Below are positions 40,583-50,091 of a stretch of DNA of 50,091 nt, one piece after another. A program made the position numbers and the translations under genes. The notes beneath the pieces were generated by a model. It was given only the letters and a program-made list of their open reading frames with translations, did no database searches and had not been told where the DNA came from. The number at the start of each line of letters is the position of its first letter. Position 1 is the first letter of the stretch. Source of the DNA: Minisyncoccota bacterium (GTDB lineage: Bacteria; Patescibacteriota; Minisyncoccia; Phycocordibacterales; JACOZG01); NCBI GenBank assembly GCA_036517595.1, contig DATDVJ010000032.1:1-50091 (forward strand), in the 5' to 3' direction.

Positions 40583-40627
40583 AACCCTCGCCATTCGTCA
40601 AAACGAATTTAGCGGGGGTTATTTTTT
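40583..40627 (+). terminator. Rho-independent terminator of the Cys-rich ORF
   Basis: AACCCTCGC...GCGGGGGTT (one G-U pair) encloses a small inner hairpin and is followed by ATTTTTT. Confidence 0.5.
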
Positions 40628-40883
40628 GCTTCCAGTTCCACCACGAACCGACTTCCCTTCCCCTTACCATCCGATTCTGCCCATATCCTCCCATTGTGCG
40701 CCTCAACGATTTGCTTGGCCACATAGAGGCCGAGACCAGTGCCAGTGATATTGACCTTGCCGGCATCATCGGCACGAGTAAATTTCTGAAAGAGTTTCGG
40801 GATCACTTCGGCTGGAATACCCACACCAGTATCAGCTACTTCCAATCTGATTTTATTCTCTATTTTACTTAATCTAACCTTGA
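40609..40883 (-). pseudogene. 3' remnant of a sensor histidine kinase (HATPase_c end only)
   Basis: It encodes ...KVRLSKIENKIRLEVADTGVGIPAEVIPKLFQKFTRADDAGKVNITGTGLGLYVAKQIVEAHNGRIWAESDGKGKGSRFVVEL. That is nearly identical to the C-terminus of the 44819..46450 kinase. It has no start codon and no HisKA domain. Confidence 0.85.
40655..40883. repeat. Copy A of a 229-bp direct repeat (kinase 3' end)
   Basis: Hand alignment to 44844..45072 gives 13 mismatches in 229 nt with no indels. Confidence 0.9.
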
Positions 40884-41292: not shown

Positions 41293-41751
41293 CTAATTAT
41301 CACCCCATATTTTCTTAGCCAATTCGGCCAATTTAACATCGTCAGCTCGTTTGTGATCATGGGAAGAGATGTAACCCTCGTATTCTTGAAAATATTTATT
41401 GACATTTGATTTTCTTGGTTTCCAAACTGGATCATTGGTGCCATGCATGGGGAAAAGCTTGGCATGAACATGATCAACACCGAATCCTTCTAAGATCATC
41501 CCCGTTCGACCAATGTCAGACAATTTAGCATCGAGAAGCTTCGCCACTTTCTTAGTGGCTAAGATCAAGTTGGTGAGGACATCTTCAGGTAAATCAAAAG
41601 CGTAACTAGGGTAATGTTTTTTTGTAATCACAACCGAGAATCCTTCCGTGTTAGGGAAAATGGACAGAAAAGCTAGGTGCTTTTCGTCCTCCCAAACTTT
41701 ATGACATGGTGCGTCACCTTTAACTATTTTGCAAAAAATACAGTCAGACAT
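41293..41751 (-). CDS. HIT-family (histidine triad) nucleotide hydrolase/transferase
   Basis: CIFCKIVKGD... and the histidine triad VDHVHAKLFP. Confidence 0.9.
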   Translation of the reverse strand: MSDCIFCKIVKGDAPCHKVWEDEKHLAFLSIFPNTEGFSVVITKKHYPSYAFDLPEDVLTNLILATKKVAKLLDAKLSDIGRTGMILEGFGVDHVHAKLFPMHGTNDPVWKPRKSNVNKYFQEYEGYISSHDHKRADDVKLAELAKKIWGDN

Positions 41752-44818: not shown

Positions 44819-46450
44819 TTATAACTCCACAACAAACCTTGACCCCTTCCCCTTACCATCCGATTCTGCCCATATCCTCCCATTGTGCGCCTCAACGATT
44901 TGCTTGGCCACATAGAGACCGAGGCCGGTGCCGGAAATGTTGACCTTGCCGGCATCATCGGCACGAGTAAACTTTTGAAAAAGTTTGGGAATCACTTCGG
45001 CTGGAATACCCACACCAGTATCAGCTACTTCCAATCTGATTTTATTCTCTATTTTACTTAATCTAACTTTGATCTCACCCTTTGGGGTATATTTGATGGC
45101 ATTATCAATTAAGTTGCCGACCACTTGCGAGAGTTTGCCCGAATCGCCCACCAACTTATAATCTCCCGCCGGATCGGCCTCGAACGAGAACTGCAATCCC
45201 TTCTTTTCAATATTGACTCTCAACTCCTTAGATACATTCTCGACCAGTTCTTTAAAATTAAGCTCGCTTTGATCATACTTCATCGTTCCTAATTCGATTC
45301 GCGTGATATTCAAGAAATCCTCAATCACCTTAACCAATTTCTCACTGGACTGAAAAATGATGTCCACCGCCCCGCGCGCTTTCTCCTCCACCGGACCGAA
45401 GGAGTTCTCCAGCACCATTGAGGCGTAACCCTTGATCGCCGTGAGCGGGCTACGCAGTTGATGCGTCGCCATAGACACGAATTCCGTCTTCAGCTTGTCC
45501 AATTCCTGCAATTTCTCATTGGCCACCCACAATTTATCATTGGACTTGTTCAACTCCTTCATCAGCCCCTCAACTCTCTCCCGCAAAGCGACTTCCTTCT
45601 GGACGCTACGGATGATGAAAATACCAACCACCACTAAAACTACAAACAAACCACCATTTAATACCCCGTCTTGCCAACGGTCAGAGAGCAAGGTTCGCAC
45701 CAAAACTAATATCCACAGTGCGAATACCAATAACTCAGTTGCAATAACTTTCACATTAAATAACCCGTGTTTGAGAATAGCGTAAGAAGTAAAGATGATG
45801 AAAGGTAGAGTAAAAATTGGAGCATAAGAAACGAAAAATGAATTATTGAAAACAACAGGAAGAATAAGATTGAAAAGAATGATAAGCATGTAAGTTATAG
45901 AAGTACCTATTAGTACATCTCGTAATTGGTCTCTCTCAACATATTTTGCTTTTCTAGTTTTACGAAACAATAAAATTATTCCACCTAAAACTAAACTTAG
46001 TATAACTGGGACGAACAAGAAAATTCCTGGTCCATATGCCAACTTGGATATTGTCCCGTCGAGATTAAACTCCAGTATCCGATTAAAAACCAGGGGAGTT
46101 AAACTTAAGACAGAAGTAAAAACTGTGATGGGAAAAATACAAAATTTGTAAAACCAAGAAAATTTTATATTTTCATTTGGAAATACATAGAATAACCTGA
46201 GGAGGACAAAAGAATACCAAACTGCCAAAAAAATAGTTATTTTTAAAAAATTAAAAGAAATTTCTCCCGGTAAACCATTGAGACTTAAATAATTAAAAAT
46301 ACTATATCCAATTGCTATTAAAACGAAGAGTAGAAAGGTTTTATTTGTTATACTTTTTCTGTTATTTAAAAACACAACAAAACCCAAGATCGTAATGGTT
46401 ATGACCGCGAGACCAACCCAAAGCAAATCAAGATTTTTCAAGATGTCCAT
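44819..46450 (-). CDS. Sensor histidine kinase with a large polytopic N-terminal sensor
   Basis: About 8 TM helices, a coiled linker, HisKA SMATHQLRSPLTAI, and HATPase_c (N box DNAIKYT, G boxes DTGVGI and GTGLGL). Start set to MDILKNL (46450). No response regulator is present in the window. Confidence 0.9.
   Translation of the reverse strand: MDILKNLDLLWVGLAVITITILGFVVFLNNRKSITNKTFLLFVLIAIGYSIFNYLSLNGLPGEISFNFLKITIFLAVWYSFVLLRLFYVFPNENIKFSWFYKFCIFPITVFTSVLSLTPLVFNRILEFNLDGTISKLAYGPGIFLFVPVILSLVLGGIILLFRKTRKAKYVERDQLRDVLIGTSITYMLIILFNLILPVVFNNSFFVSYAPIFTLPFIIFTSYAILKHGLFNVKVIATELLVFALWILVLVRTLLSDRWQDGVLNGGLFVVLVVVGIFIIRSVQKEVALRERVEGLMKELNKSNDKLWVANEKLQELDKLKTEFVSMATHQLRSPLTAIKGYASMVLENSFGPVEEKARGAVDIIFQSSEKLVKVIEDFLNITRIELGTMKYDQSELNFKELVENVSKELRVNIEKKGLQFSFEADPAGDYKLVGDSGKLSQVVGNLIDNAIKYTPKGEIKVRLSKIENKIRLEVADTGVGIPAEVIPKLFQKFTRADDAGKVNISGTGLGLYVAKQIVEAHNGRIWAESDGKGKGSRFVVEL
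44844..45072. repeat. Copy B of the 229-bp direct repeat (inside the intact kinase gene)
   Basis: See copy A. The offset between copies is 4189 bp. Confidence 0.9.
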
Positions 46451-46522
46451 TGGGGTATAGTATAACACATCATAATTTTCTCAATTTAACTATCGCTTCA
46501 TGCAGGATATTCCTAAATATAT

Positions 46523-47116
46523 TCATTGACTTTCATTGCCCTCTTTTATTTTTTCAAGAACTTCAGAGAAGGTTTTCCCGGCTGAATAAATATCCCAGAT
46601 AATTTTTCTCCACGTCTGTTCTTCTGGCACCAGATGTCCCTTATCATTACTCCACATTTGAAAACCTCGGTGATCATTAAGGATGACTGGTATTGCCTCT
46701 TTGATATTGCGCGGCAACTCTTCCGGTTGAAAATAATGGCAAAGTTCATGCATAATTACTCTGATTCTTTCGGCCGGATTATTACCAAACAAGGGAGCAG
46801 AGAACCACCTTTTTTGATTATCTGGCGAATAATTGTAAGGAAAAATGTCTAATCTAGTAAAAAAACAGGTGAGTGTCGGCTCGGCGATCTCAATTTCATA
46901 AAAAGACCCAAGTTTATCGTAAAAATTTCGCTCAACTTTTTTCCATTCGTTTTCTATATTTTTTATATGACTGGTAACAAAACGCTCGTTAATATCAACA
47001 AGAACTCCATTTATTTCGGCTTGAATCAACGACAAAACTTCCGGTGATTTATTTGGCCTAATATAGGCATCAAATATTTCGACTTCTTTGCTTCTATCGT
47101 AGGTAAATAGAATCAT
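46523..47116 (-). CDS. Hypothetical HExxH-motif protein (possible zinc metallopeptidase)
   Basis: VIMHELCHYF contains HExxH. TATAAT sits 6 nt upstream of the ATG with no SD. It is the last gene of the RiPP-like cluster. Confidence 0.5.
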   Translation of the reverse strand: MILFTYDRSKEVEIFDAYIRPNKSPEVLSLIQAEINGVLVDINERFVTSHIKNIENEWKKVERNFYDKLGSFYEIEIAEPTLTCFFTRLDIFPYNYSPDNQKRWFSAPLFGNNPAERIRVIMHELCHYFQPEELPRNIKEAIPVILNDHRGFQMWSNDKGHLVPEEQTWRKIIWDIYSAGKTFSEVLEKIKEGNESQ

Positions 47117-47130
47117 ATTTACATTATAGA

Positions 47131-47162
47131 TAAAAAGGAGGCCAGTTACAATTCTGGCCTCC
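47131..47162 (-). terminator. Strong Rho-independent terminator after the peptide ORF
   Basis: On the minus strand, GGAGGCCAG-AATTGTAA-CTGGCCTCC is followed by TTTTTAT. Confidence 0.8.
47140..47157. repeat. 18-nt hairpin repeat GGCCAGTTACAATTCTGG, copy 1 (core of the terminator)
   Basis: Exact 18-mer shared with 48679..48696. Confidence 0.85.
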
Positions 47163-47191
47163 CGTTGTCGACAGCGATCTTTCGTATTCTG

Positions 47192-47338
47192 TTATACATT
47201 TCCGGTATAGCAATCACACGAGTGATCACTCTCGGTGTCGCAGTCTGAGTCGCATTCACTCTGAGATGCTTCTACTTCAGACTGTTGCCCGACCTTAATT
47301 TCCTCAAGAGTTTCCTCAAGAAGAGTCAGGGTCATCAT
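47192..47338 (-). CDS. Untracked 48-aa candidate RiPP precursor peptide: MMTLTLLEETLEEIKVGQQSEVEASQSECDSDCDTESDHSCDCYTGNV
   Basis: Translated by hand. The ATG at 47338 is preceded by GGAGGTG 6 nt upstream. It overlaps the rSAM 3' end by 23 nt in another frame, has TAA at 47192-47194, and is followed by the terminator. The N-terminal half is leader-like and helical; the C-terminal half is Cys/Asp/Ser/Thr-rich. Confidence 0.6.
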   Translation of the reverse strand: MMTLTLLEETLEEIKVGQQSEVEASQSECDSDCDTESDHSCDCYTGNV

Positions 47339-48665
47339 GGGCACCACCTCCTTTCTTTTCTTTGATCAGACCTTCTTTGGATAATCTCACGATCAGTTTT
47401 TTTGCCTCATTTTTTGTGGCCCCCATCTTTATTAACGTTGAGACACTCACGGCATCATCCTTTTTGATGAGGGCAGACAAGGCATCGAAAGCTGATTTAT
47501 CCAATAACGTTTGGCCAGCCTCGGCCTTAACTAAGATACCACCAAAGACTTCCTGTCTCAAGATGATGGGGTGGACAAATGAAAAAAGGTGGTTCTCTCC
47601 AATCACTGGGTCAAGCCTATTGATGAGGACAGTTTTAACACCTTGTGGGCCAATACAGTGGTAATCCTGACCGTTGCTTGAATTTGCTTCTTCAACTTGG
47701 CAACCACCAGTACAAAACTTCACATGCGGGCAGGCTTTGCAGCGCTCGACATATTGTCTGTCTCGGCAATCCACCATTCTTGCCCAGGTTTTTTCGAGGC
47801 CTTCTTCTAAGACATTCCCGTATTTAAGGGCTGAATGCCCACATGGTCTAATTTCTCCGTTTGCCCCAATTGACGCACTAGTCACACCGGCGGTACATTT
47901 CCGTCTGGCGAGATATCGATATTTTTCGACATCTCCTAAGGCACACCAGGGGTAGTGCTCAAACACATCGACATCATAACCCCATTTCTTCTTGAGTTCG
48001 TAGAGTGCTGTTAAACTGTCTCTCAGTTCTCGAATAGAAATAAGATTCTGGGAAAAGCCAATGGCGATTGGCCCTGGAGCACAAGCCCGAGTCGCTCCGA
48101 ATTTTGCCGCACCCCAACTTCCAACCAGATCGCCAGTGTCCCTTAGCGTAGAGATATTCCATTTTGTCAGAACCATGTTGACGAGCACCCGGAAGCCCAT
48201 CTTGATCGCCAGCTTTATATTATTTGTTGCTAGTTGCCAACTACCAGGAATTTGAGTTATGCCATCATGCACCCGTGCGTTGCTTGAGAGCAAGCTAGTC
48301 ATGATGCTGGTGATTCCCACTGCTCTTAATTGTAAACCTAGGCGCTCACTAAAAAGCGTTAGGTTCGAATTTAGGGTTATTCCCATGCCTGATTCTTTGC
48401 ATCTTCTAATTAGATGCAGTGATAAATCTGGCACGACTAGAGGTTCGCCACCGGTTACCACTACCCTAATGATTTGATTTTTCTCGAATTCTTCAACAAG
48501 CCGATCCAGATCCCGAAGAGACATTGTTTTGCGTGGAGAATCTTCGTGTCGGAAGTAGTTGTAACAATGTCTACAGATGTGATTGCAACACTCGGTAATT
48601 TCCACCTGAACGTTTATCGGACTTTTCAATGTCCTAAACATGACAACTTTATCCTTTCTTTTCAA
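47316..48665 (-). CDS. Radical SAM / SPASM-domain peptide-modifying enzyme with a C-terminal PqqD-like (RRE) domain
   Basis: C27-x3-C31-x2-C34 (CNHICRHC) and GGEPL. SPASM motif C309-x2-C-x5-C-x3-C322 (CKACPHVKFCTGGC) plus upstream Cys257 and Cys275. Residues about 360-435 look like a wHTH RRE. The start is TTG 48665 or ATG 48641. Confidence 0.9.
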   Translation of the reverse strand: MKRKDKVVMFRTLKSPINVQVEITECCNHICRHCYNYFRHEDSPRKTMSLRDLDRLVEEFEKNQIIRVVVTGGEPLVVPDLSLHLIRRCKESGMGITLNSNLTLFSERLGLQLRAVGITSIMTSLLSSNARVHDGITQIPGSWQLATNNIKLAIKMGFRVLVNMVLTKWNISTLRDTGDLVGSWGAAKFGATRACAPGPIAIGFSQNLISIRELRDSLTALYELKKKWGYDVDVFEHYPWCALGDVEKYRYLARRKCTAGVTSASIGANGEIRPCGHSALKYGNVLEEGLEKTWARMVDCRDRQYVERCKACPHVKFCTGGCQVEEANSSNGQDYHCIGPQGVKTVLINRLDPVIGENHLFSFVHPIILRQEVFGGILVKAEAGQTLLDKSAFDALSALIKKDDAVSVSTLIKMGATKNEAKKLIVRLSKEGLIKEKKGGGAHDDPDSS

Positions 48666-48678
48666 AGACCCAATCTCC

Positions 48679-48696
48679 GGCCAGTTACAATTCTGG
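48679..48696. repeat. 18-nt hairpin repeat GGCCAGTTACAATTCTGG, copy 2 (5' of the rSAM gene)
   Basis: Exact 18-mer, lying 14 nt upstream of the TTG at 48665. There is no U-tract here. Confidence 0.85.
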
Positions 48697-48734
48697 TCTA
48701 TCTATTGTCCATCCTATACCCGCTATGATTGATG

Positions 48735-49682
48735 TCAATGATAAATTCTCAAATACCCATCCATATAAATTTTAGTCTGCCAACCAGGAGTATTATTTGA
48801 TCTTAACTCTTCTTTACTTGGGTCACGCAAAAAACTTAGCAGTGCACCGTTTAGTAGTACCGGACGATTTTTCCAATTCGCTTTGATGGAACCAAGATTA
48901 ATTATCCAGCAATTTAAGTCATCATTTTCTATTCCCCTTTTCGCCACTATTTCGATCATTCGATCCAGTTTGATTTTAAGATTATCAGGCAAATGATGTT
49001 TAAACTTAGAGTGATACGCTAGATCAATATTTTTTTGTCCAAAGTATGTTTCAAGTTTGACCGCATCACCATTGATTAAGACTACCGTATATTGTTCATT
49101 TTGAAATTCTTGCTTTAACTGATTTACTTTACCTTGGTCGAGGTTGCTAATTCGAAACAATTTAATTTTCAGATCGACTAAATTCTCATTTGCAATATCG
49201 AGTGAAGTATTGCTATTATCAATGCCAAAGAAAATAATTTTTTGGTTATTCCCCTTTTCCCGTAGTTTAATAATTAGTTGTCTCTCAATCTCCATCGAAC
49301 CAGAACCAATACTAACGAGAATCAAGTGCCGTCCGGGCTGATTCAGCTCTGCAATTTGTTTTAAAATCTCTTTTCTGATTCGACCCAAAACGTCTGGGAA
49401 CTTCCATTTTTCAATTTCGAGTAATTCTTTCTGAAGCATTCGCTCCCACTTACCGTTACTTAAATGAAAATCGGAAAGTTCCAACAGTCGTTTACCATCC
49501 AGAGTAGGACGCACCTTTCTGAACCAATGCCAAAAATCACGGAAGCGATACAGAGAACGAAAAAAGTTTAGATTGGCTTCGAGGGCATACGAATTTTCAC
49601 ACTGGCCGCTTTTCTTGTGTATTTCAAGATCAACAATGATCTCGTCAAGTAATTGTTTTCTGACCAAATATTTACTATTCAT
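48735..49682 (-). CDS. Putative class I SAM-dependent methyltransferase
   Basis: Motif I-like LILVSIGSGSMEIE, post-I acidic IIFFGIDNS, and motif II-like VVLINGDAV. The assignment rests on motif resemblance only. Confidence 0.5.
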   Translation of the reverse strand: MNSKYLVRKQLLDEIIVDLEIHKKSGQCENSYALEANLNFFRSLYRFRDFWHWFRKVRPTLDGKRLLELSDFHLSNGKWERMLQKELLEIEKWKFPDVLGRIRKEILKQIAELNQPGRHLILVSIGSGSMEIERQLIIKLREKGNNQKIIFFGIDNSNTSLDIANENLVDLKIKLFRISNLDQGKVNQLKQEFQNEQYTVVLINGDAVKLETYFGQKNIDLAYHSKFKHHLPDNLKIKLDRMIEIVAKRGIENDDLNCWIINLGSIKANWKNRPVLLNGALLSFLRDPSKEELRSNNTPGWQTKIYMDGYLRIYH

Positions 49683-49843
49683 ATTCTAAACGAACTCCAA
49701 AAGATGGTCAGGATTGAGAAATAAAAGAAACTCCGATTAGTGATACTGCCGCGGTTACTCAACAAAACCGTGAAGCCCAAGACGCCAATACCGGCGATCA
49801 CCACGCCGACCGAAAGCAGATCAAGATTTTTCAGGATGTCCAT
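49679..49843 (-). pseudogene. 54-codon N-terminal fragment of a paralogous sensor kinase, ATGA-coupled to the methyltransferase start
   Basis: MDILKNLDLLSVGVVIAGIGVLGFTVLLSNRGSITNRSFFYFSILTIFWSSFRI compares with the kinase N-terminus MDILKNLDLLWVGLAVITITILGFVVFLNNRKSITNKTF... The upstream TATAAT and 8-nt spacer are also conserved. Its TGA (49679-49681) overlaps the ATG at 49680-49682. Confidence 0.6.
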
Positions 49844-49962: not shown

Positions 49963-50091
49963 ATGCAGACCAAAGAAGTAACTTGGATCGGTCCTCGTTA
50001 CAACAAGGGTGGTGGAAACGGTGGTAGTGGCACCGGACAAACCGGCGGTAACGGGGGTGGAACCAGCACGGGCAACAATGGCTCGGGCGGT
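49963..50091 (+). CDS. 5' part of a Gly/Asn/Thr-rich low-complexity protein (runs off the window)
   Basis: The ATG at 49963 is preceded by AAAGGGGGTGA. MQTKEVTWIGPRYNKGGGNGGSGTGQTGGNGGGTSTGNNGSGG has no stop before the window end. TTGACA-N16-TAACAT lies at 49864-49891. Confidence 0.45.
   Translation, partial: MQTKEVTWIGPRYNKGGGNGGSGTGQTGGNGGGTSTGNNGSGG

Follow-up and report, generated by a model that had tools for sequence, protein, structure and literature searches.

The described systems closest to the locus analyzed here are the ranthipeptide systems PapB/PapA (freyrasin), CteB/CteA (thermocellin, of the SCIFF type), and QhpD/QhpC. The locus is a cassette of three genes, which encode a radical S-adenosylmethionine (SAM) enzyme with a SPASM domain, a 48-residue peptide rich in Cys and Asp, and a protein with an HExxH motif; it lies in a window of 50,091 nucleotides, by which we mean the whole stretch of DNA that was analyzed (contig DATDVJ010000032.1 of assembly GCA_036517595.1, positions 1 to 50,091 of the forward strand). 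Ranthipeptides are defined by their chemistry, a thioether from the Cys sulfur to a non-alpha carbon of the acceptor residue; QhpD joins Cys to Asp or Glu, and CteB joins Cys to Thr. All three systems resemble the cassette in having a radical SAM enzyme with a full SPASM domain and a short leader-plus-core precursor rich in Cys and acidic residues, and they show that side-chain thioethers from Cys to Asp/Glu and to Thr have precedents. In the products of PapB the thioether joins Cys to the Asp beta-carbon, and the enzyme accepts Cys-Asp spacings of 0 to 6 residues (PMC9413430). In contrast to the substrates of PapB and CteB, the precursor described here has a single fixed core motif, with neither CX3D repeats nor the SCIFF layout. 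The cassette further differs from the ranthipeptide systems in the position of a domain shaped like the recognition element (RRE) for peptides made by the ribosome and modified after translation (RiPPs), which is C-terminal rather than N-terminal; in its novel HExxH partner, as against a C39/ABC, S8, or M16 component; and in its hosts, bacteria of the candidate phyla radiation (CPR).

Two other groups of systems bear comparison. The sactipeptide maturases and related RiPP enzymes SkfB, AlbA, and SuiB are radical SAM enzymes carrying a SPASM or twitch domain and an RRE, which in the cassette is putative, but the enzyme of the cassette shares only 18-20% identity with SkfB and SuiB and has another order of domains. 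The bond made is a Lys-Trp C-C bond in the case of SuiB and a Cys-to-Met C-alpha thioether in that of SkfB, and because these bonds differ, fold similarity does not fix the chemistry. The pathways of mycofactocin (MftA/B/C/E) and pyrroloquinoline quinone (PQQ; PqqA/D/E/F) share with the cassette a small precursor, a radical SAM/SPASM enzyme, an invariant core, and the lack of an exporter, and their RRE and peptidase have putative counterparts in it. However, the precursor here has neither the C-terminal Gly-Val-Tyr of MftA nor the Glu...Tyr pair of PqqA, and no dependent dehydrogenases lie near the cassette.

Our best reading is that the cassette represents a new ranthipeptide-like RiPP family, of ranthipeptide/sactipeptide type in its design and a member of no curated family tested. 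It is very probably a peptide-maturation system. That it is a three-gene RiPP-type cassette confined to CPR/Patescibacteria and yielding a ranthipeptide-like thioether product is the best joint explanation of the data, and we consider it fairly probable. The family is set apart by its fixed core motif, its C-terminal putative RRE, its novel HExxH partner family, and its CPR host range. The cassette family is real and conserved, and it is apparently undescribed. A preliminary description of this DNA had judged the cluster plausibly undescribed, and this judgment is supported: neither the peptide nor the HExxH protein is covered by a model of NCBIfam or Pfam, and no account of the motif or of a CPR radical SAM RiPP was found in the literature, the compendium paper on radical SAM RiPPs included, most subscription journals being outside the scope of the search.

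The Locus and Its Expression Signals

The preliminary description had named four co-directional minus-strand genes, with a strong terminator behind the smallest of them, in a CPR-like genome. All four ORFs (open reading frames) are present at their coordinates in the ORF listing, the terminator at 47163-47136 has a 10-bp stem, and the host is a Candidatus Paceibacterota metagenome-assembled genome. The three genes of the cassette, which spans about 2.1 kb, and their signals are as follows.

47316..48665, minus strand: radical SAM/SPASM ORF, 449 amino acids, TTG start; candidate peptide maturase
47192..47338, minus strand: precursor peptide ORF, 48 amino acids, MMTLTLLEETLEEIKVGQQSEVEASQSECDSDCDTESDHSCDCYTGNV; leader MMTLTLLEE..., then an acidic Cys-rich core
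47222..47254, minus strand: core motif CDSDCDTESDH, from a six-frame regular-expression scan and alignment
47136..47163, minus strand: intrinsic terminator, 10-bp stem with 7 G-C pairs and a T-run, directly 3' of the peptide stop codon
47123..47151, minus strand: promoter-like site TTGTAA-17-TATAAT, overlapping the terminator just 5' of the HExxH gene; a consensus match only
46523..47116, minus strand: HExxH ORF, 197 amino acids, motif MHELCH; candidate leader peptidase

The likelier start of the radical SAM enzyme is ATG 48641 and not the annotated TTG, since its homologues begin with MFRTLK or MYKTLK. The ATG of the peptide sits inside the final codons of the enzyme gene, and its Shine-Dalgarno sequence AAAGGAGG, 8 nt upstream, lies within the 3' end of the same gene. 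This Shine-Dalgarno sequence encodes the C-terminal ...KKGG of the enzyme, which is conserved in the family; thus the peptide is translationally coupled to the enzyme. The order of the downstream signals (peptide stop, strong hairpin with a T-run, TATAAT box, HExxH start) recurs in the 15 related loci examined.

Conservation of the Cassette across CPR Bacteria

A search of 5.8 billion proteins returned approximately 97 homologues of the radical SAM enzyme at E<1e-34, all of about 430 amino acids, and their source names are almost all those of CPR bacteria (Parcubacteria/Paceibacterota, WWE3, and Daviesbacteria). Genome and metagenome scans together with contig look-ups gave 33 related loci, corresponding to about 25 distinct places. 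The radical SAM gene is present in each of them by construction of the set; their neighborhoods were compared by tblastn and ORF clustering. The hosts are Patescibacteria (Paceibacterota, WWE3, Collierbacteria, and Saccharibacteria), and the common unit is a radical SAM/SPASM enzyme of 430-450 amino acids, followed by a peptide of 36-52 amino acids and then by an HExxH protein of approximately 195 amino acids.

Of the 18 loci whose downstream DNA is long enough, 16 (plus one divergent) encode the HExxH protein directly behind the radical SAM gene; the only other recurrent neighbor is a HisKA_7TM kinase. A small ORF of the same design occurs in every related locus, mostly between the radical SAM and HExxH genes; in two loci (L020 and L021) it is placed after the HExxH gene. 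The preliminary description had allowed that the small ORF might not be conserved beside homologues of the enzyme, but it is kept next to every homologue examined. The genes for the radical SAM/SPASM enzyme, the small peptide rich in Cys and Asp, and the HExxH protein therefore form a module that is real, conserved, and co-directional, as had been supposed. At one place (L003/L013), no HExxH gene is seen within the 745 bp available downstream of the radical SAM gene in L003; about 3 kb 5' of that gene (L003:1432-4690) are encoded a SET-domain protein, a second radical SAM-like protein, a 42-amino-acid ORF, and an M16 peptidase.

The cassette is rare. A pattern scan matched 8 of 185,579 GTDB species representatives, which is a lower bound since the scan is limited by its pattern; it used a narrower alignment, the 46-sequence alignment having no conserved stretch long enough. 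CPR/Patescibacteria have very small genomes, for which few or no biosynthetic gene clusters are generally reported. In one survey, the Patescibacteria genomes assembled contained no biosynthetic gene clusters (PMC11613949). The occurrence of the cassette across several CPR classes, with a near-invariant core and frequent sensor kinases, suggests a maintained physiological function and not a sporadic antibiotic.

The Precursor Peptide Family

Roughly 30 distinct peptides share the leader and the core motif. In their alignment the leader has the consensus M-x-x-L-S-L-[YH]-E-D and is followed by a variable spacer, and the core has the consensus C-x(1-3)-D-C-[DNH]-[TS]-[ED]-[SNG]-D-H, where the two Cys are invariant and the Asp, the Thr, and the Asp-His pair are nearly so. 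The occurrence of the motif exceeds chance: in six-frame translations of approximately 280 kb, comprising 24 related loci and the whole window, it has exactly one match per locus in the 25 loci, beside the radical SAM gene and on the same strand, and zero matches elsewhere. The shortest core is GGCHWDCDTESDHSGE (in L008), and one peptide (P0174) terminates one residue past the DH. The number of additional Cys and Asp varies, as do the C-terminal tails, among the peptides of the family.

A profile search showed that 24 such peptides have already been called as genes, all of them unnamed or annotated as "hypothetical protein" and none with a Pfam domain. The peptide of the window has no Pfam match and no NCBIfam match at E<=1, the SCIFF peptide model included, and CX3D repeats of the PapA type (PMC9413430) are found in none of the family cores, which have the single C-x(1-3)-D-C-x-T-x-x-D-H motif instead. 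The earlier observation that the precursor follows neither the SCIFF nor the CX3D freyrasin layout is thus borne out. A GVY ending of the MftA type occurs in none of the family peptides, whose C-termini are variable.

The Radical SAM/SPASM Enzyme

The enzyme belongs to the radical SAM superfamily by the Pfam model Radical_SAM (PF04055; 79.3 bits against a cutoff of 29.5, E=4.9e-22), and Fer4_12 is also matched. In an alignment of 46 homologues, 98-100% keep the cluster motif C27x3C31x2C34. The SPASM domain (PF13186) is recognized with 27.1 bits against a cutoff of 21.5. The hallmark of this domain is a seven-Cys motif, C-x9-15-G-x4-C ... C-x2-C-x5-C-x3-C ... C, that holds two auxiliary Fe-S clusters. 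In the alignments, seven Cys of the SPASM region are invariant, namely C241, C257-x12-G270-x4-C275, and C309-x2-C312-x5-C318-x3-C322; an eighth, C337, is present in only 50% of the homologues, and its place may be taken by Asp334, which is kept widely. The analogy with anSME and PqqE suggests that Cys (C241, C257, C275, and C322) supply all ligands of auxiliary cluster I. On the same analogy, auxiliary cluster II may be held by three Cys plus an Asp or a Cys, with D334 as the fourth ligand, as in PqqE.

Both by sequence and by fold (Foldseek), the best matches among solved structures are the RiPP maturases SkfB and SuiB, followed by BlsE, MoaA, anSME, and PqqE, all at 15-20% identity; the match to SkfB has E=4e-14 by sequence and 8e-16 by fold. 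The AlphaFold2 model of the enzyme has a mean predicted local distance difference test score (pLDDT) of 85. It includes a C-terminal domain at about residues 355-436, with strands at 361-389 and three helices at 390-430, where pLDDT is around 80-94. In this model the beta3-alpha3 order of the domain is that of a PqqD-like RRE and not that of a classical winged helix.

The HExxH Partner Protein

The HExxH family comprises 31 members with 44-60% identity. Residues H123, E124, H127, K139, E140, N147, and D148 are invariant, the first three within the motif M-H123-E-L-C-H127. In the AlphaFold2 model (pLDDT 95) the HExxH motif is placed at the end of a helix, E140 in the next helix, and a small sheet before them. 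An HExxH motif with a downstream Glu is the gluzincin arrangement, and the model is suggestive of a putative zinc peptidase of an uncharacterized family. The same elements, HExxH in a helix, a conserved Glu in the next helix, and a preceding beta-sheet, are found in MA-clan (gluzincin) peptidases such as Peptidase_MA_2, from which the protein of the window differs in lacking a Pfam match at the gathering threshold. A profile search of 1.84 billion representatives found only 128 relatives. HExxH is kept in 121 of the 127 relatives checked, and a downstream [DN]-[IL]-K-E motif recurs in the stretches printed; ten distant members of the family were compared with Pfam, and no domain was found in them.

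More Distant Cassettes

Relatives of the radical SAM enzyme at 30-40% identity (L028, L029, L032, and L033) are still followed by Cys/Asp-rich peptides and HExxH proteins. In L028 the peptide (...CDCDCHDCDDCVECDSCDCDC) is accompanied by a 222-amino-acid HELNH protein homologous to the HExxH family of the window (hhalign probability 96.9%). In L033 the peptide is ...SCDKDCDCWDCVECDDY, and its partner passes the Peptidase_MA_2 model, scoring 45 bits where 32.4 are needed. L029 and L032 likewise encode Cys/Asp-rich peptides accompanied by HExxH proteins. These distant cassettes keep the richness in Cys and Asp but not the Thr or the His. Since Cys/Asp richness and an HExxH partner persist in this wider group, Cys and Asp are favored as the reacting residues and the partner as a peptidase.

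Two of these contigs carry additional systems. Three radical SAM cassettes lie within 10 kb in L032 (L032:1437-9280), two with Cys/Asp-rich peptides and HExxH proteins and the third with a 54-amino-acid Cys-rich peptide, a 311-amino-acid radical SAM/SPASM enzyme, and a methyltransferase of small size; the same stretch encodes a split M16 peptidase. L029, from a genome of Daviesbacteria in which a distant copy of the present cassette is found as well, contains on the minus strand (L029:2392-4867) a second, divergent radical SAM/SPASM enzyme (487 amino acids), a Peptidase_MA_2 protein, and a 93-amino-acid peptide ending in ...GSCDCDAGCFNCNCNCVIVCT.

Proposed Mechanism and Alternative Readings

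By their sequence, the radical SAM/SPASM gene and the precursor gene are co-transcribed and translationally coupled, and the terminator behind the peptide sets apart the HExxH gene, which has a -10 box of its own. The C-terminal beta3-alpha3 domain, if its modeled topology is a guide, would bind the leader x-L-S-L-Y-E-D as an RRE would. By analogy with characterized enzymes, the radical SAM core and the two SPASM auxiliary clusters would then abstract a hydrogen atom from the acceptor carbon, on the near-invariant Asp, the Thr, or the Asp of the core, and this carbon would be joined to the thiol of an invariant Cys, giving one or two small thioether rings as in the ranthipeptides. The HExxH...E protein, presumably acting as a zinc peptidase, would remove the leader and possibly the variable C-terminal tail, which would leave a cross-linked peptide, short and very acidic, as the product. 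The assignment of the cross-link as a Cys thioether, made by analogy, is tentative, its chances being a little below even. The invariant core, the lack of a conserved exporter, and the recurrent HisKA_7TM neighbors point to a signal, metal-binding, or cofactor-like role over a hypervariable antibiotic. Two features speak against a classical bacteriocin: conservation is higher in the core than in the leader, and neither an exporter nor an immunity gene is kept with the cassette.

Several observations weigh against a ranthipeptide-like system. To begin with, no NCBIfam model reaches its cutoff for the radical SAM enzyme:

NirJ2 (TIGR04055): 108.5 bits, cutoff 500
AhbD (TIGR04545): 102.5 bits, cutoff 500
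GeoRSP: 94 bits, cutoff 400
MftC (TIGR03962): 90.9 bits, cutoff 265
AlbA sactisynthase (NF012164): 51.8 bits, cutoff 850
PapB (NF047865): 47.5 bits, cutoff 340
PqqE (TIGR02109): 46 bits, cutoff 381

The best scores are those of NirJ2 and AhbD, heme enzymes that do not act on peptides, and exceed those of GeoRSP and MftC only slightly; the 25 best NCBIfam families listed for the enzyme do not include the SCIFF maturase model. This ranking would suit a non-peptide enzyme, an AhbD/NirJ-like heme maturase or a maturase of another cofactor, next to which the small ORF would be incidental. We regard that explanation as extremely improbable: the two scores reach about 100 bits where 500 are required, every locus keeps the peptide and its translational coupling, the enzyme has an additional domain of RRE shape at its C-terminus, and no heme-pathway genes occur among the called neighbors on the ten contigs whose gene tables were read. 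An AhbD/NirJ-like function was rejected on this genomic context despite its top NCBIfam scores.

Second, the PqqD model (PF05402) is undetected by Pfam in the enzyme of the window; among 25 C-terminal domains of the family it is matched by one, at E=0.099. A profile of the domain compared with PDB sequences gives weak winged-helix matches, which include TfuB1, a lasso-peptide RRE matched over nearly the full length (E=0.56), and the N-terminal RRE region of SuiB (E=0.1); alignment of the domain by hhalign to two PqqD-containing radical SAM enzymes is non-significant. Homology of the domain to RREs is not demonstrable by sequence; the label rests on the predicted topology, which is suggestive. 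The preliminary description had proposed a radical SAM/SPASM enzyme with a C-terminal RRE-like domain. The first half of this proposal stands, and so, in the model, does the beta3-alpha3 order; PF05402 and the profile comparisons fail to back the second half. The family searches that it had suggested for the enzyme divide in the same manner, with SPASM passing its cutoff, PF05402 undetected, and the PapB (47.5/340 bits) and AlbA (51.8/850 bits) models falling far short.

Third, CteB has an open coordination site that binds the substrate Cys, whereas auxiliary cluster I here appears to have four Cys ligands. A fully Cys-ligated cluster I would fit a chemistry other than thioether formation (a C-C or C-O link with His, Thr, or Asp, an epimerization, or a conversion of Cys) in which the Cys of the product serve as metal ligands. 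It is consistent with such chemistry that the invariant Thr and the Asp-His have no established role in Cys-Asp thioether formation, that C-x-x-D-C...D-H resembles a Cys2/Asp/His metal site, and that the enzyme falls outside the groups of PapB, AlbA, and the SCIFF maturases. However, the characterized radical SAM/SPASM enzymes that act on Cys-rich acidic peptides are, to our knowledge, S-C bond formers in the examples known. PapB is the documented case (PMC9413430), and the distant cassettes retain only the Cys/Asp richness, which argues for Cys and Asp as the reactive pair. We consider this alternative, with the Cys as metal ligands, unlikely.

Fourth, Pfam gives only sub-threshold matches for the HExxH protein (SprT-like E=0.11, M78 E=0.17) and NCBIfam gives none, and Foldseek finds nothing significant for it in PDB (best E=0.3, template modeling score below 0.3). 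Nearly all of its top-ranked non-significant Foldseek matches are zinc proteases; compared with a Peptidase_MA_2 protein by hhalign, the family reaches a probability of just 6%. The suggestion that this protein is a leader peptidase accordingly keeps the conserved HExxH with its downstream Glu and the L033 cassette with its Peptidase_MA_2 partner, and lacks a significant fold or Pfam match.

Finally, no exporter or immunity gene is conserved in the related loci, and across CPR classes the core is better conserved than the leader, which is atypical for antimicrobial RiPPs and resembles the cofactor precursors PqqA and MftA. These two features would be expected if the product were a peptide-derived cofactor or small molecule similar to PQQ or mycofactocin, made from a cross-linked C/D/C/T/D/H segment, excised by the HExxH protein, and acting inside the cell. 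The minimal set of a radical SAM enzyme, an RRE-like domain, and a peptidase mirrors PqqA/E/D/F and MftA/B/C/E; in addition, MftC is among the top NCBIfam matches, and D334 may be the fourth ligand of auxiliary cluster II, as in PqqE. Yet the enzyme falls far below the cutoffs of MftC and PqqE, the conserved neighbors include no candidate for a cofactor-dependent enzyme, the varying number of extra Cys and Asp and the varying C-terminal tails suit a peptide product better, and the rarity and patchiness of the cassette in the species-representative scan are unlike those of a core cofactor. We find a cofactor decidedly unlikely.

The reading as a new ranthipeptide-like family would bring a new precursor family, a new HExxH family outside Pfam and NCBIfam, and a radical SAM/SPASM subfamily with an unusual domain order. 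If the cross-link is an ordinary Cys-Asp thioether, the cassette defines a new ranthipeptide family; if it is not, a new radical SAM transformation.

Neighboring Genes and Genomic Context

The remaining features around the cassette are the following.

48735..49682, minus strand: methyltransferase-like ORF, 315 amino acids, from the ORF listing
48679..48699, minus strand: hairpin-forming repeat of 21 nt, core CCAGAATTGTAACTGG, in the 5' leader of the radical SAM gene
44819..46468, minus strand: HisKA_7TM kinase ORF, 549 amino acids, with ATG 46450 as the likely start and no adjacent response regulator
49679..49843, minus strand: ORF of 54 amino acids, remnant of a kinase N-terminus, with a promoter-like site at 49879-49852

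The 315-amino-acid ORF had been taken for a SAM methyltransferase and for the fourth member of the module. The class I motif I VSIGSGS is visible in it, but its Pfam matches are sub-threshold (Methyltransf_31, E=0.004, 17.2 bits against a cutoff of 27), so that the label is weaker than had been stated; its best PDB sequence match is an EgtD-type methyltransferase at E=0.3. Three genes of the proposed four are kept together; of the methyltransferase-like gene no homologue was found in any related locus by tblastn and ORF clustering of flanks up to 5-6 kb, and it was rejected as a module member on this ground. The gene is probably a bystander outside the conserved unit. It is co-directional with the radical SAM gene and immediately upstream of it, and four other cassettes (L028, L029, L030, and L032) have class I methyltransferases, unrelated to this one, at a distance of no more than 5 kb, as might be expected if a dedicated tailoring enzyme for the peptide completed a four-gene module. 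We nevertheless think such a role quite improbable: apart from the missing homologues and the sub-threshold assignment, a promoter-like site and a hairpin separate the gene from the radical SAM gene, and its start overlaps the stop of the kinase remnant (ATGA), which suggests arrival by rearrangement.

The hairpin in question, the 21-nt repeat at 48679-48699, shares an identical core with the terminator hairpin at 47140-47160, and the pair brackets the radical SAM and peptide genes. The window has 2 matches of this direct repeat against 0.36 expected by chance. As a family feature the repeat was ruled out, for no equivalent was found in 15 other loci, and it was seen in this genome only.

The protein encoded downstream of the cassette is, as had been described, an orphan polytopic sensor kinase; it passes the HisKA_7TM (PF16927; 34.8 against 28.6 bits), HisKA (54.6 against 26.9), and HATPase_c (106.8 against 26.4) cutoffs and has no response regulator beside it. 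HisKA_7TM kinases adjoin the cassette in 6 of the 21 distinct loci carrying the DCxTxxDH motif. In L016 and L027 the kinase gene lies directly upstream and points the same way; the window and L021 have it downstream, and in L005 it is divergent; in L030 two such kinases flank a gene similar to FeeM and autoinducer synthases. The kinases adjoining the cassettes are homologous over their full length, with 36-46% identity. The association, a bare count of 6 of 21, is no more than suggestive. In its most far-reaching form, our reading would be that the product is a peptide-based signal sensed by, or regulated via, the adjoining HisKA_7TM orphan kinases (or, alternatively, a peptide-derived cofactor), with a new CPR-specific Cys/Asp/Thr/His cross-link pattern made by a subfamily of radical SAM enzymes with a C-terminal RRE and with a new family of zinc peptidases; this combination we consider unlikely. 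If the signal reading is true, it would provide these reduced, episymbiotic bacteria with a peptide-based communication system.

The neighborhood in L030 (L030:7519-11392), beside the closest homologue of the radical SAM enzyme (57% identity), is rich in signaling genes; the FeeM/autoinducer-synthase-like gene there (Pfam, 5e-14) is accompanied by a UbiE-type methyltransferase, and the contig is CPR-like.

Fragments of kinase genes lie on both sides of the cassette. The 5' remnant (49679-49843), an ORF inside the interval of the preliminary description but absent from it, has 56% amino acid identity to the N-terminus of the paralogous kinase (E=5e-15), and its DNA contains a repeat of 55 nt at 85% identity. 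The 3' remnant (40609-40845, minus strand) is an ORF of 78 amino acids that differs little from the C-terminus of the full kinase, and the corresponding DNA repeat, 40637-40883 against 44826-45072, extends over 247 nt at 92% identity. Between them the fragments bracket about 9 kb that contain the methyltransferase-like gene, the cassette, the full kinase, two class II aminoacyl-tRNA synthetase-like genes, and a small ORF at 41293-41751, which we take to be HIT-like. This arrangement suggests a past duplication or recombination among kinase paralogues. The G+C content between approximately 44.3 and 49.9 kb is 0.39-0.41, falling to 0.29 where the kinase gene encodes its membrane-spanning part, compared with approximately 0.46 elsewhere in the window, which points to a rearranged, possibly acquired region. 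Searches of the window for tRNA, tmRNA, and Rfam families found none. At the end of the window, on the plus strand (49965-50091), a divergent ORF with the Gly/Asn-rich sequence MQTKEVTWIGPRYNKGGGNGGSGTGQTGGNGG... runs off the edge.

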